A stretch of DNA of 30,950 nucleotides from a virus (IMGVR_UViG_2695420421_000007), one strand, 5' to 3'. Counted from the first letter of the stretch, positions 2,987 through 12,111 are shown. The notes: generated by a model from the sequence alone, not told the origin. A program made the numbers and translations.

Positions 2987-3013
2987 GAAAAGAAAAAAGG
3001 CCGCAGAGCGGCC
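2987..3013 (-). terminator. Rho-independent terminator (minus strand) closing the leftward prophage operon before btuC
   Basis: Minus-strand reading gives hairpin GGCCGC-tct-GCGGCC (2999..3013) followed by TTTTTTCTTTTC (2987..2998), downstream of the CDS ending at 3123. Confidence 0.6.
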
Positions 3014-3122
3014 ATAAACACAAACAAAAATCAATAAGTTAGGTAATTATCAAAGACTTACAGACACACAAAAACACAGCCAACCACAACAAATAACAGA
3101 GATGTGGTCAATTTGTGGATCA

Positions 3123-3668
3123 TCAGCCAACAAATTTAGCAACAAATACAGCAACCGCCGCTGTGAAAATGGTTGTGCACACTGGCACAATAATGCCACT
3201 CCAACGCCACTTCGTATTATCATCAACCTTGTCAAACCGCCGATTCATCTCATCCATAATCTTGTCAAAGCGTTTATCCATCGCTTCGGTAAGCTCACCC
3301 TTCAGGCTGTTAATGTCTGATTTGAGCTGCTCTTTCAGGTTAGCTGTATCAGATTTAAGCTCACCTTTCAGATTCGCAATATCGCATTCAAGATCACCTT
3401 TCAGATGTGCTATGTCTGCTTTGAGTTCACCTTTCACCTCACCAACATCGGCTTTAGTTGAGAGGTTTGTAGTGCGTTCAGCAAGCGTCGCAAGGTCGTT
3501 TCTTGTTAGCGATAAATCACCTTCGAGCCGCTCAATTCGCCTTTCAAGTTTATCTGACATTCCGCCTCCACTACTGCCGCCATCGCCACCATGATAAAGC
3601 ACATCACGCTCAGAATGCGACACACTACCTGCTGAATTACCGAAAAGATTTCTTGCTACATTACCCAT
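3123..3668 (-). CDS. Hendecad-repeat coiled-coil protein with C-terminal transmembrane anchor (about 181 aa); function unknown
   Basis: ORF track 3123..3677; preferred start is the ATG at 3668 (AGGA Shine-Dalgarno upstream), overlapping the stop of the upstream gene. Translation has five 11-residue LKGELKxDIxx-type repeats and a hydrophobic C-terminus GIIVPVCTTIFTAAVAVFVAKFV. AT-rich codons. Confidence 0.6.
   Translation of the reverse strand: MGNVARNLFGNSAGSVSHSERDVLYHGGDGGSSGGGMSDKLERRIERLEGDLSLTRNDLATLAERTTNLSTKADVGEVKGELKADIAHLKGDLECDIANLKGELKSDTANLKEQLKSDINSLKGELTEAMDKRFDKIMDEMNRRFDKVDDNTKWRWSGIIVPVCTTIFTAAVAVFVAKFVG
3291..3455. repeat. Five tandem 33-bp units inside the coiled-coil CDS
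   Basis: Units at 3291-3323, 3324-3356, 3357-3389, 3390-3422 and 3423-3455 share the core (a/g)AG(c/a/t)TCACC(c/t)TTCA on the plus strand; they encode the 11-aa repeats. Confidence 0.65.
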
Positions 3669-4161
3669 TATCACCATCCTGCGCTTTGTCTTTCTCCAAC
3701 CACTTCAGCACCGCAGACGTACGATAAAGGCTCAGGTAACCACAATTCAGGCAATGCAGCGTGTAATAAGTTTTGCGCATATCAGGTATGCTCTTAACAT
3801 CACCCAAAAAAGCATAAGATACATAATGCTTTATGTTCTCTTTAATTAACTCACTCTGTTCCTCCAGGGGTAGATTGTTAAAATTTTCTGGTTTCTTATT
3901 TTTATCCCAGCAAAGATCCATACTTTCTGGAACAGATAATCGCGACGATCCACATGAAGGGCAGACACTGGAGACCCCCTTCTCAGACAAGAAACGGAAG
4001 AAGATTTCTGGCGTAATCTCCATCAGCCGCTCTTTATGTTTTTTGACACGACTCATCGACTTCTTATTGATTTCATCAGCTTCTTCTTTGCATTTATCTT
4101 CTATATATTTCGATAGTAAATAGTCATATAACTCTTTTTTTGTAGGTTTTTTTATTTCCAT
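3661..4161 (-). CDS. Cys-cluster (putative zinc-ribbon) protein, 166 aa; function unknown
   Basis: Translation contains CPSCGS and CLNCG cysteine pairs, Lys/Glu-rich and AT-rich. ATG lies 2 nt after the int stop with a GGAGGA Shine-Dalgarno inside the int 3' end. Confidence 0.6.
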   Translation of the reverse strand: MEIKKPTKKELYDYLLSKYIEDKCKEEADEINKKSMSRVKKHKERLMEITPEIFFRFLSEKGVSSVCPSCGSSRLSVPESMDLCWDKNKKPENFNNLPLEEQSELIKENIKHYVSYAFLGDVKSIPDMRKTYYTLHCLNCGYLSLYRTSAVLKWLEKDKAQDGDNG

Positions 4162-4163
4162 AG

Positions 4164-5141
4164 TTACATTCCTCCCAAGGGATTAAACCTCACCGCATCC
4201 TGCAAGTAATCCGGCGCAAGATGGGCATAAATCATCGTTGTCTGAATCTTTGCGTGCCCCAGAATTTTCTGGAGCGTCAGAATATTGCCGCCGTTCATCA
4301 TGAAATGACTGGCGAAGGTGTGGCGCAGCGCATGAACAGCCTGGCCGTCAGGAACATCAGGTGCGACCGTTTTGATGACATCGCGAACCAATGAATAATC
4401 CAGCGTCGGAAACACCAGTTTCCCGCCCCGTTTTTTGATCTTTTCAAACAGGCTTTCAGAAATAGGAACGGTACGGTTTTTGCTGTTCTTCGTTTTTGAA
4501 AAAGTGATTCGACAATGAAGAACACGGCGCTGCTCCAGTGCCGCTACCTCGCCCCATCGCGCCCCGGTCGACAGAAGGATTTCGACGGCCAGCCGTTCAT
4601 CGGGATTTTCAGCCAGTGCATCCAGCAACTGAACACATTCAGACTTACTCAGATATCCCATTTCACGCTCGTTAACCTTCATTCCTTTAAGGCCTTGAAC
4701 GGGGTTATCGTTAAGAAAATGGCCGGATGAGATGAGTGCGGTAAACATCGCGCTTAACGCCCCAATCTCTCGATTTATGGTGCTGGGCTGTATCCCCTGC
4801 TCTATCCTGGACACACGTAGCTCGGTGAGCATCGTTGTATTAAGTTTATGCACGCACGGGTCATCCATTGCCTCACTCAAGCGCAGCAATTTAAGGCGCG
4901 TGTTATGCCCTGACTTCATTAGCTGGCCGTGGTATTTCCACCACAAGTCAATAAGCACTGACAGCGGACGGCGATCAATGGAGTTTCCTTTCCACTCATT
5001 GTTATGCTGTTGCGCCAGCACCCACCGCTCATATAAAACTGCATCCGATTTCGTTTTAAATTTTTTGCGAATGCGTTTGCCTTTACGCCCCTCAGGACGC
5101 ATGTCAAGAAGATACCCTCCCGGAATTGATTTTATGCTCAT
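4164..5141 (-). CDS. int: Tyrosine recombinase / phage integrase (P2 Int-like)
   Basis: C-terminal catalytic region HALRHTFASH ... LGHAKIQTTMIYAHL is the tyrosine recombinase R-H-R-Y signature. ORF extends to 5291, but the Met at 5141 (MSIKSIPGGY) gives a P2 Int-like length of 326 aa. Confidence 0.88.
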   Translation of the reverse strand: MSIKSIPGGYLLDMRPEGRKGKRIRKKFKTKSDAVLYERWVLAQQHNNEWKGNSIDRRPLSVLIDLWWKYHGQLMKSGHNTRLKLLRLSEAMDDPCVHKLNTTMLTELRVSRIEQGIQPSTINREIGALSAMFTALISSGHFLNDNPVQGLKGMKVNEREMGYLSKSECVQLLDALAENPDERLAVEILLSTGARWGEVAALEQRRVLHCRITFSKTKNSKNRTVPISESLFEKIKKRGGKLVFPTLDYSLVRDVIKTVAPDVPDGQAVHALRHTFASHFMMNGGNILTLQKILGHAKIQTTMIYAHLAPDYLQDAVRFNPLGGM

Positions 5142-5190: not shown

Positions 5191-5502
5191 TTAGCCGGGC
5201 TGTGTGCCAGTCTTGCGGGATTTTTGAGAAGACGATGTGTTTTCTGGCCCATCAGGGGAGAGAGAAGGACTGATCTGCCCAGCAGCCTCATTTGTTTCGT
5301 TACTCATCAACCACGTAGTGTATTTTTTAAATTCCGGGTGCATTGTGATTTTCAGTAAAACCTCCGTTCCCACACCTCGAATACCAGTCTCGTATTGCTT
5401 AACCGTACCAACCGCAATACCTATTGAATCCGCGAACTTTGCCTGACTAAGCCCCTCAGATTCTCGAATTGCTTTTAGCTTCTTTGATATCTCTATTGAC
5501 AT
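5191..5502 (-). CDS. C: P2 C-type immunity repressor (about 104 aa)
   Basis: From the internal Met (MSIEISKKLKAIRESEGLSQAKFADSIGIAVGTVKQYETG...TTWLMSNE...AGQISP) the translation parallels the P2 C repressor as recalled from memory (HTH, then a FTKYTLWFM-like block). Divergent from the early operon, upstream of int. Confidence 0.78.
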   Translation of the reverse strand: MSIEISKKLKAIRESEGLSQAKFADSIGIAVGTVKQYETGIRGVGTEVLLKITMHPEFKKYTTWLMSNETNEAAGQISPSLSPDGPENTSSSQKSRKTGTQPG

Positions 5503-10835: not shown

Positions 10836-11795
10836 ATGAAAATTTGTATCGACGACGGCTCCACCAACATCAAGCTGGCATGGACTGAGAACGGCGAACG
10901 CCGCAACGCCATCAGCCCGAACAGCTTCAAGTCGGAATGGTCTGCGCCGTTCGGTGGCATGCAGCCCGCGAACTACATGCTTGATGGCGTGCGCTATGGT
11001 TTTGATCCGGTCAGCGATCGCTTTGTCCAGACAACCGACACGCAATACCAGTACAGCGATGTAAATGTCATTGCCATTCATCACGCGCTGGTCAAATCAG
11101 GCATCACGCCACAGGAGGTGGATGTGGTTGTCACCCTGCCACTGAGCGAGTATTTCGACACAAACGCACAGCCGGACATGGCCAACATCAACCGCAAAAA
11201 AGCGAACGTTATGCGCCCGGTGGAGTACCAGAACGGCGAAGCATTCACTATCCGTAACGTGCGGGTTATGCCTGAATCCATTCCGGCTGGCTTTAAGGCA
11301 CTGGCTGACATGAGTCCGTTTGAATCCCTGCTGATTGTGGATTTGGGCGGAACCACGCTGGATGTGGCAAAGGTTCAGGGGCAACTGGCAGGTATCAGCC
11401 AGGTGTTTTGCGATCCACACGTAGGCGTTTCTCTGATGGCCGATGCCGTACTGTCGGTGATGGCCACTAACGGTATGCGCACCAGTCACCACATCGCCAA
11501 TACCATTATCGAACATCGCCATGATGAAGCCTGGCTGCGCCAGCACATCCACAATGACGCGCATTACGCCAGCCTGATGGCGGTTATTCGTGAAAAGGAA
11601 GAAACACTGAAACAACGCGTGATCCGCGCGCTGGCGGGTTTTTCGGGTTACGGGCGGGTGATGGTTGTCGGTGGAGGGGCGGAGATTGTGGCACCCGCTA
11701 TCCGCGAAGCCTGCGGAGTTAATGCGACTTTCATCGCGGACGGGGTGCCACAGTTTGCTCTGGTTAATGGGCTGTACGCAATGGACAAGGAGTAA
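10836..11795 (+). CDS. ParM/StbA-like actin-family ATPase (319 aa)
   Basis: N-terminus MKICIDDGSTNIKLAW and internal blocks (YQYSDVNVIAIHHAL, VDLGGTTLDVAKV, VPAGFKA) parallel plasmid R1 ParM as recalled from memory; strong Shine-Dalgarno AAGGAAAA upstream. Confidence 0.8.
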   Translation: MKICIDDGSTNIKLAWTENGERRNAISPNSFKSEWSAPFGGMQPANYMLDGVRYGFDPVSDRFVQTTDTQYQYSDVNVIAIHHALVKSGITPQEVDVVVTLPLSEYFDTNAQPDMANINRKKANVMRPVEYQNGEAFTIRNVRVMPESIPAGFKALADMSPFESLLIVDLGGTTLDVAKVQGQLAGISQVFCDPHVGVSLMADAVLSVMATNGMRTSHHIANTIIEHRHDEAWLRQHIHNDAHYASLMAVIREKEETLKQRVIRALAGFSGYGRVMVVGGGAEIVAPAIREACGVNATFIADGVPQFALVNGLYAMDKE

Positions 11796-11799
11796 ACCA

Positions 11800-12111
11800 A
11801 TGACGACACCAACCAGACGGATAAGTTTCTATCTGAAGCCTGCGGCCGTCAAGAACGAAAGCGAAGCATGCGCCTGGCTGGGCAGCCTTACACCAGAAGC
11901 CCGCAAAAGCGGCCAACGCGTGGCTTTTCTGGCCGGGCTGGCACTTCTGAAAATGAATCCAGCAGAGGCTTACCGACTGGCTGCATGGGCTGACGATGAG
12001 GCGTTATCGGTGACACAAACCAGGACAGAACGCCCCGTGCCACAGCCAGTACCAACCGCACAGATAACCAGTCAGATAGCAGGGAATATCCGGGCATTAT
12101 TTCCTGAATGA
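11800..12111 (+). CDS. Hypothetical protein (103 aa) in the ParR-equivalent position
   Basis: ATG at 11800 preceded by AAGGAG that overlaps the parM-like stop. No recognisable motif; assignment is by position only. Confidence 0.5.
   Translation: MTTPTRRISFYLKPAAVKNESEACAWLGSLTPEARKSGQRVAFLAGLALLKMNPAEAYRLAAWADDEALSVTQTRTERPVPQPVPTAQITSQIAGNIRALFPE

Follow-up and report, generated by a model that had tools for sequence, protein, structure and literature searches.

What does a run of 33-bp units, repeated head to tail within a single gene, contribute to the protein encoded by that gene? This question is raised by a 30,950-nt viral stretch (IMGVR_UViG_2695420421_000007; hereafter the window, with coordinates counted from its first letter), in which an earlier note made from the DNA alone had drawn attention to five tandem units inside a gene at 3123..3668, on the minus strand. 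In this report, we analyzed this coiled-coil gene, its product, and its neighborhood. The answer that we favor, and consider highly probable, is that the array forms the central part of the α-helical stalk of a small tail-anchored inner-membrane protein of the DUF1640/CCDC90-like type.

The 33-bp array is a coding repeat

In the codon register of the minus strand, the array reads TKADVGEVKGE followed by four units of the LKxDIxxLKGE type, within an open reading frame (ORF) of 181 amino acids (aa) spanning 3123..3668. It had been proposed that the units encode 11-residue repeats of the LKGELKxDIxx type, which the reading in this register confirms. The block of DNA is also the one previously placed at 3291..3455, although those limits are 3 nt out of phase and the codon register gives 3294..3458. 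Likewise, the presence of five 33-bp units is upheld by the lag statistics and by Tandem Repeats Finder, but the core TCACCYTTCA that all five had been said to share is exact in only four of them (at 3295, 3361, 3394, and 3427, where 0.11 sites would be expected by chance), the remaining unit carrying the variant TGCTCTTTCA. Identity at a lag of 33 nt is 65%, versus 30 +/- 4% in codon shuffles, and the observed value was reached by 0/20000 of these shuffles. Lags of 66 and 99 nt give 65% and 62%, respectively, while other multiples of 3 give 17-40%. Tandem Repeats Finder reports the segment 3332-3436, with a period of 33, 3.2 copies, 75% matches, and a score of 105. Pairs of units are 52-70% identical at the DNA level, and it is because the units are so diverged that an exact-seed repeat search was blind to the array.

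Most of the substitutions that distinguish alleles fall on third positions of minus-strand codons (e.g., 4/2/14 and 3/1/12 by codon position), which identifies the array as a coding repeat under purifying selection rather than a DNA-level element. The units differ from each other mainly by synonymous changes, with the peptide motif retained. An antisense ORF (3115..3594) was considered as well and rejected because it is unsupported and its frame is not conserved.

A predicted hendecad helix with a C-terminal anchor

Within an open frame of 3123..3677, translation most probably begins at the ATG at 3668, giving the 181-aa form; this codon and the stop of the gene upstream overlap (ATGGGTAA). 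Gene callers other than PGAP choose this ATG, whereas the RefSeq (PGAP) annotation of a 100% identical locus uses a shorter form of 145 aa (3123..3560) that begins at M37. This residue (3560) is preceded 4 nt upstream by GGAGG, which is encoded by Gly codons (region 3553-3564, minus strand). The in-frame conservation of two N-terminal classes across genera, described below, favors the long start without proving it.

In a hydrophobicity spectrum of aa 72-147, the maximum lies at 3.69 residues per turn (11/3 = 3.67), which 5/2000 shuffles reach, and the heptad period of 3.50 has virtually no power. The register of the stalk is hendecad (11/3), not heptad. A consensus over 57 distinct homologue units (a=L, b=K, c=A/S, d=D, e=I/L, f=A, g=N/S, h=L/V, i=K, j=G, k=E) confines the core positions a/e/h to about 66 degrees of an 11/3 wheel, with Lys along one edge (b, i) and Asp/Glu along the other (d, k), the layout to be expected for salt bridges between helices. 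AlphaFold2, run with 36 homologues (mean predicted local distance difference test [pLDDT] 62.5, predicted template modeling score [pTM] 0.25), returned a monomer in which residues 1-35 are disordered, residues 37-146 form one continuous helix of 110 residues, and, after a short break, residues 150-180 form another. The hendecad coiled coil anticipated from the DNA is thus borne out by the 11/3 period and by a long helix (in a monomer), and the modeling of the 3123..3668 product that had been suggested as a check gave this 110-residue helix followed by a C-terminal transmembrane (TM) helix.

The TM segment consists of 19 uncharged residues, with a conserved TKWRWSG before it and only KFVG after it, and W154, just ahead of it, is invariant in the alignment of homologues. 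Since the coiled-coil protein has no signal peptide and only 4 residues past the TM segment, the rod should project into the cytoplasm, and we predict a tail-anchored membrane protein with its bulk in that compartment.

Unit number differs between strains

It had also been proposed that gain and loss of units would alter the length of the stalk between strains, which could be checked by counting units across homologous loci. Our protein search gave 55 homologues, which carry 2-7 units and whose lengths differ by multiples of 11 aa only (148/159/170/181/192, 112/123/134/145/156, and 154/176/187). A scan of IMG/VR for related loci gave 30, and a scan of genome contigs, dependent on two peptide patterns, gave 2. 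In one locus from E. coli (L002, GCA_000936475), 12.5 kb of which share 99.2% identity with the window, the gene is identical to that of the window except for a clean 33-bp loss between two 13-nt direct repeats (ATCTGAAAGGTGA). In a second locus (L004), unit 3 is followed by a tandem duplicate that is 32/33 identical. The proposal is therefore supported by deletion as well as duplication of 33 bp in near-identical loci. Recent amplification is suggested by two homologues (P0024 and P0032) with three or four identical units in succession. The membrane-proximal MDKRFDK-type unit is itself found in one, two, or three copies, one being absent in a subgroup of homologues and an extra one being present in P0031.

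The array varies but it is not hypermutable or hypervariable. Five units are the dominant allele, found in 31/38 fetched loci, and at least 35 of the 39 complete E. coli genomes with the gene align unbroken across the array. We rejected a phase-variable contingency locus because the units are 33 bp long, diverged to the extent given above, and always in frame, with one allele dominant. Antigenic variation of a surface protein was rejected in view of the missing signal peptide and the tail anchor.

Two observations on homologues stand apart. A 107-aa homologue in Providencia rettgeri (L045:5494-5817) has zero hendecad units, and it keeps the Gly-rich linker, the heptad helix, a neck-like motif (YAKKEDV), and the TM segment. 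In L023:4964-5573 (IMG/VR UViG_2671180603_000011), the Gly-rich linker reads GGDGGDGGDGGDGGSSGGG versus GGDGGSSGGG in the window, i.e., three extra 9-bp GGD units, which represents a second in-frame repeat polymorphism.

Relationship to DUF1640/CCDC90-like proteins and to Borrelia Bdr

Prokaryotes and mitochondria contain integral membrane proteins of the DUF1640 type (Hartmann et al., eLife 2016, PMC4786415), in which a β-layer motif, [aliphatic]-A-T-K-[polar]-[DE], is found at the start of the stalk (PMC4786415). RefSeq names the protein identical to ours a DUF1640 domain-containing/CCDC90 family protein. As judged by sequence comparison, membership rests on transitive homology, with PF07798 matching 29/36 homologues (E <= 0.01, best E 6.4e-12). 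A profile search of the PDB reaches 6h9l (E 1e-4), which has three identical chains, the matched segment consisting of ATKEDIEALRK 11-mers. By contrast with the profile, a phmmer search of the PDB with the single protein found nothing significant, and a scan of NCBIfam found nothing above cut-off. In the neck of the window protein (N68-L-S-T-K-A-D74), T71, K72, and D74 are invariant in 36 homologues, S70 stands where the motif has A, as in several relatives, and N68 precedes the motif as in Tcar0761. On this match, the first repeat unit doubles as the β-layer neck of the family. The internal units have L, not T, before K-x-D, which makes it probable that they form plain hendecads rather than repeated β-layers. 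As for overall layout, the coiled-coil stalk and single C-terminal TM helix of the family are found in our protein (AlphaFold2 helices, 11/3 period, I159-A177), but there is no globular N-terminal head, as residues 1-35 are predicted to be disordered and residues 37-68 to form a single helix.

The same unit is widely distributed. A profile search of 1.84 billion representatives gave 435 clusters at E <= 1e-10, and most of the best 150 profile matches are proteins of 100-250 aa with in-register hendecad runs of 0-9 units. The family is large and already catalogued. Separately, several very large proteins (1235-3006 aa; P0074, P0075, P0089, P0113, P0140, P0191, and P0210) hold many stretches of the hendecad unit, up to 26 in register in P0075, and have no C-terminal anchor, showing that giant repeat proteins employ this unit as well.

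Among plasmids (72,556 searched with tblastn), there were 17 matching records, 15 of which are Borrelia bdr genes (E about 1e-5). A B. miyamotoi Bdr, with the unit LKSDIMSVKSD and an end made of HKWMFG plus a TM segment, scores 41.1 bits against PF07798, which is above cut-off. The relationship with Bdr rests on tblastn, a common Pfam family, and a common layout, and by these sequence comparisons Borrelia Bdr proteins are the closest characterized relatives by repeat type.

A prophage end and a Zn-ribbon partner gene

The window starts with E. coli chromosome (nlpC-btuD-btuE-btuC) and continues with a P2-like prophage that has integrated upstream of btuC, on the ihfA side, and whose last gene encodes the coiled-coil protein. 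All 5426 complete genomes match the host side up to 3013, and 37 continue into the prophage. This position, at the upstream edge of a terminator (Table 1), is the host/prophage junction, and the IHF-consensus matches located just inside the prophage end likely correspond to the attL arm. The right prophage end is outside the window. The repressor, integrase, Zn-ribbon, and coiled-coil genes form a minus-strand group that is tightly packed: the gap between repressor and integrase is 49 bp, that between integrase and the 166-aa gene is 2 bp, and the 166-aa and coiled-coil genes overlap by 8 bp. No convincing promoter was found inside this four-gene group. P2 has a C-int operon. By analogy with it, the tight packing and the failure to find an internal promoter make it likely that the coiled-coil gene is co-transcribed with C-int in the lysogen. 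The order C-int-partner-coiled-coil-att is also seen in Salmonella and Klebsiella.

Beyond the repressor, there are a divergent early operon, a replication endonuclease, ParM, and P2-type head, lysis, and tail genes. The ParM-like and plasmid-partitioning genes (10836-12111, plus strand), between the replication endonuclease and the portal gene, are an unusual cargo where P2 has the old/tin accessory genes. The coiled-coil gene is about 97% identical in Shiga toxin-producing E. coli genomes of serotypes O157:H7, O145, O103, and O26. Sp13 is the only P2-like prophage of O157 Sakai and is defective yet inducible (PMC2669165).

The gene immediately upstream, with two CxxC pairs, is a constant companion of the coiled-coil gene. 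Its stop overlaps the coiled-coil start in the window, a Zn-ribbon gene abuts or overlaps that start in 40/40 loci examined, and Providencia retains the pair with the same 8-nt overlap. There are two types of partner, which are distant homologues of each other (E 3e-11): type A (166 aa, phrog_4293) in 22 loci and type B (about 130-137 aa) in 18, the latter often missed by gene finders, e.g., in Salmonella loci. The type of partner tracks the class of the N-terminal 36 residues of the coiled-coil protein—class MGN occurs with type A (22 loci) and the other class with type B (18 loci), with 0 mixed cases—while the stalk and anchor are about 90% identical across both N-terminal classes. The N-terminal peptide may bind the Zn-ribbon partner, or this co-variation may merely reflect linkage. 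The AlphaFold2 model of the partner has a pLDDT of 82.8, and searches for its fold in the PDB and BFVD gave no significant match. Neither product matches a known defense system in PADLOC-DB v2, which returned only coiled-coil noise (LmuB, ZorA, LeoBC, <= 21 bits) and a marginal DUF3800 match for the partner. No enzymatic or effector domain was found in either protein by domain and fold searches.

Table 1. Features of the coiled-coil gene, its product, and its surroundings (window coordinates unless a locus is named)
Feature	Position	Strand	Basis or remark
Intrinsic terminator, GGCCGCTCTGCGGCC + TTTTTTCTTT	2989..3013	minus	upstream of btuC; 3013-2999 plus T tract; strong
Two IHF-consensus matches (3029-3041, 3048-3060)	3029..3060	plus	only two in window; 0.87 expected in whole window
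Coiled-coil gene, 181 aa, DUF1640/CCDC90-like, Bdr-like	3123..3668	minus	ORF list, RefSeq, codon bias, 55 homologues
Predicted C-terminal TM segment, I159-A177	3138..3194	minus	sequence, alignment, AlphaFold2 helix 150-180
Two further 11-residue units of another type, LTEAMDKRFDK / IMDEMNRRFDK, at membrane-proximal stalk end	3228..3293	minus	alignment, periodicity
Five tandem 33-bp units (hendecads, aa 71-125)	3294..3458	minus	repeat statistics and copy-number variation in homologues
Unit 5, LKSDINSLKGE	3294-3326	minus	codon register
Unit 4, LKSDTANLKEQ	3327-3359	minus	codon register
Unit 3, LECDIANLKGE	3360-3392	minus	codon register
Unit 2, LKADIAHLKGD	3393-3425	minus	codon register
Unit 1, TKADVGEVKGE	3426-3458	minus	codon register
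Neck, N68-L-S-T-K-A-D74 (NLSTKAD)	3447..3467	minus	match to published β-layer motif; invariant columns
Pre-neck helix, aa 38-68 (SDKLERRIERLEGDLSLTRNDLATLAERTTN), heptad-like	3465..3557	minus	AlphaFold2 and periodicity; hydrophobic period about 3.58
N-terminal 36 aa, variable, predicted disordered, ending in Gly-rich linker GGDGGSSGGG	3561..3668	minus	pLDDT < 50 for 1-35
Upstream partner, 166 aa, two CxxC pairs (Zn-ribbon-like), phrog_4293	3661..4161	minus	ORF, PHROG, AlphaFold2
Further partner-gene copies	L026:4521-4934; L006:5602-5997; L041:4488-4877; L045:5001-5501
Tyrosine integrase	4164..5141	minus	directly upstream of Zn-ribbon and coiled-coil genes
Helix-turn-helix repressor (P2 C-like position)	5191..5502	minus	head of presumed C-int-partner-coiled-coil transcription unit

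Proposed mechanism and alternative explanations

The scenario that best fits these findings is the following. From N to C terminus, the protein would consist of ~36 disordered residues with a Gly-rich linker, a ~30-residue heptad-like helix, the neck, a hendecad stalk (consensus L-K-A/S-D-I-A-N-L-K-G-E, core a/e/h), the conserved Trp, and the TM helix. Its rod, of about 110 helical residues and about 16 nm, would reach into the cytoplasm; the protein is probably a parallel homo-oligomer and, by analogy with solved family members as described in secondary citations, a trimer. Eleven residues correspond to exactly three turns of an 11/3 helix, so that each unit would add about 1.6 nm to the rod; since such a unit represents whole turns and leaves the hydrophobic seam unshifted, only whole-unit insertions and deletions would be expected, as is seen. 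Units would be gained and lost via recombination or replication slippage between imperfect 33-bp units. Co-orientation and tight packing with the repressor, integrase, and Zn-ribbon genes suggest that the gene is most likely expressed in the lysogen, in a two-gene accessory module.

Several points weigh against this scenario or parts of it. The translation start is uncertain, with M37 and its GGAGG preferred by PGAP over the ATG at 3668. The AlphaFold2 model is a monomer of modest confidence, silent on oligomerization and on the β-layer. The window protein itself scores 24.1-24.5 bits against PF07798, under the gathering cut-off of 33.5 bits, and the alignment covers profile positions 68-170 only, the head region (1-67) being absent. 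Alignment of our profile with a Bdr protein by hhalign included only the C-terminal 40 columns, and coiled-coil and repeat sequences inflate similarity scores in general. Finally, the strong dominance of five units means that the variation may be rare neutral drift, not functional tuning.

Other explanations of the array and its gene have to be weighed against the evidence above. That the 33-bp repeats act as DNA-level elements—integrase arm or att-proximal binding sites, with an incidental ORF—is suggested by the location of the array only 280-445 bp from the prophage end, near IHF-like sites. However, this idea has next to no probability left when units differ mainly synonymously and keep the peptide motif, alleles differ above all at third codon positions, the peptide unit recurs in hundreds of unrelated genomic contexts, and unit number ranges over 0-7 while the att side is conserved. 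If the repeat acts through the protein, an 11/3 helix need not be a coiled coil, as this periodicity is common to lipid-surface helices as well. The protein could instead lie flat on the cytoplasmic face of the membrane as an amphipathic helix of the apolipoprotein/α-synuclein/perilipin type, with the number of units setting the area covered. Pfam Apolipoprotein A1/A4/E is indeed its top weak match (E 1e-5), found for 24/36 homologues, and the profile matches apolipoprotein A-IV chains in the PDB (E 2e-4). These scores nevertheless fall far short of the curated threshold (26 vs 90 bits), only a, e, and h make up the narrow hydrophobic stripe, and Lys lines one flank and Asp/Glu the other, whereas lipid-surface helices have cationic residues at both interfaces. 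Moreover, the neck motif of the family is known in trimeric coiled coils, and three identical chains make up the solved relative 6h9l. We therefore regard a lipid-surface helix as improbable.

A coiled-coil stalk leaves the role of the protein to be considered. A lysis accessory or holin-like factor of the XhlA type, acting late in the lytic cycle, would account for weak matches to the PHROG holin phrog_689 (E 0.003), Rz-like spanins, and "hemolysin", and for those of PF10779 (XhlA) to 3/36 homologues and to gp26 of Liberibacter phage SC1 (E about 1e-3). We find this very unlikely, as all these scores are marginal and fall over the coiled-coil/TM region, a complete and separate P2-type lysis cassette (holin, endolysin, LysB/LysC-like) is present about 17 kb away in the late region, and the coiled-coil gene is at the att end in the repressor-integrase orientation, outside the late genes. 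More plausible than these, yet still doubtful, is that the coiled-coil protein and its Zn-ribbon partner are a lysogen-expressed superinfection-exclusion/anti-phage module, with the stalk lengths and the N-terminal/partner swaps resulting from an arms race. The position at the prophage end in the direction of lysogenic transcription, the strict pairing in 40/40 loci plus Providencia, the mosaic exchange of partner and N-terminal peptide as one cassette, the recurrent amplification of units in P0024 and P0032, and the presence of relatives on many mobile elements (Liberibacter phages, Borrelia prophage-plasmids, an Aliivibrio conjugative plasmid) are all compatible with it. Conversely, models of known defense systems give coiled-coil noise only, neither protein has an enzymatic or effector domain, co-variation of partner and N terminus could be plain physical linkage, and the dominance of five units is unlike strong diversifying selection. 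We formulate this idea more specifically as a speculation, to which we likewise attach a low probability. The Zn-ribbon protein and the Bdr-like rod would be a conserved, translationally coupled lysogen module of P2-like prophages in E. coli, Salmonella, Klebsiella, and Providencia, in which the rod is a spacer holding the partner-bound N-terminal peptide at a set distance from the inner membrane, for superinfection exclusion or another phage-host conflict, while stalk length (0-7 hendecads) and the partner/N-terminal cassette diversify.

Implications

Our reading of the array as part of a tail-anchored stalk makes the repeat an ordinary in-frame coding variable-number tandem repeat in a coiled-coil protein, in which length variation is expected for a known family. 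It leaves current understanding unchanged unless a function is found, and its value is that of an entry point to the family, not of a new phenomenon. Nevertheless, a tractable E. coli prophage now appears to hold a close structural counterpart of Borrelia Bdr and prokaryotic DUF1640 proteins, the function of which has been unexplained for more than two decades. Natural alleles provide a ready length series (0, 2, 3, 4, 5, 6, and 7 hendecads) in an otherwise constant background, which suits testing of stalk length, and strict pairing with an un- or poorly annotated Zn-ribbon gene offers a first handle on partners. If the idea of a two-gene conflict module were true, the E. coli version would serve as a tractable model of Borrelia Bdr and prokaryotic DUF1640 proteins.

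Comparison with known systems

XhlA of Bacillus subtilis PBSX (PF10779) resembles our protein, with weak matches, in being small, phage-encoded, and composed of a coiled coil and a membrane segment at the C terminus, but it sits in a lysis cassette, whereas the window gene is at the integrase end of a prophage with its own P2-type lysis genes. The Borrelia VraA/Erp proteins (PMC4370689) have in-frame coding repeats whose number varies between strains via inter-unit recombination, as here. However, VraA/Erp are surface-exposed antigens, while the rod is here predicted to be cytoplasmic, and immune selection is therefore unlikely as a driver. Gp26 of Liberibacter phages SC1/SC2 and a DUF1640 protein from an Aliivibrio fischeri conjugative plasmid show the same succession of neck, n hendecads (LKQDIANVRTE), TKW, and TM segment as our protein. 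Their neighborhood differs (in SC1, a P4-type primase precedes the gene), their N termini are shorter, and a Gly-rich linker is missing.

The DUF1640/CCDC90-like family (PF07798) includes human MCUR1 and CCDC90B, yeast Put6/Put7, and prokaryotic members such as PDB 6H9L. It shares with the window protein a stalk started by a neck ([aliphatic]-A/S-T-K-x-[DE]), one C-terminal TM helix, and a bulk on the matrix/cytoplasmic side (predicted here), and 6H9L is likewise built with 11-residue units (ATKEDIEALRK). Unlike these proteins, ours has no globular head, its N terminus being a short disordered peptide plus a heptad helix, and its gene, carried by a prophage, has a Zn-ribbon gene as partner.

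Casjens et al. (2012, PMC3303823) describe the bdr genes, of unknown function, as "lysogenic conversion" genes of prophages, and report that bdrT, which is stable in culture, has about 9 repeats in B31 versus about 6 in the 99.4% identical N40 orthologue. In both systems, accessory genes carried by prophages encode proteins made of tandem 11-residue units (LKSDIMSVKSD vs LKSDINSLKGE, with the 11-residue period of Bdr taken from secondary citations and the sequences), followed by a K-W-x-x-G motif and a C-terminal membrane anchor, with inner-membrane association (predicted here) and a repeat number that varies between near-identical orthologues. There are differences too. According to PMC4370689, a KID/KIE tripeptide core ("KID repeat", IPR003900) defines Bdr repeats; KID/KIE is found in many Bdr units and in none here, where KADI, KSDI, and ECDI are found instead. 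Bdr proteins have a different N-terminal domain, and neither an obvious ATKxD neck nor a Zn-ribbon partner was seen at the locus examined. Bdr proteins, encoded by cp32 prophages and linear plasmids, are found only in Borrelia, where they make up large paralogous families; the window gene, by contrast, is present as a single copy per genome, on a chromosomal P2-like prophage of E. coli.

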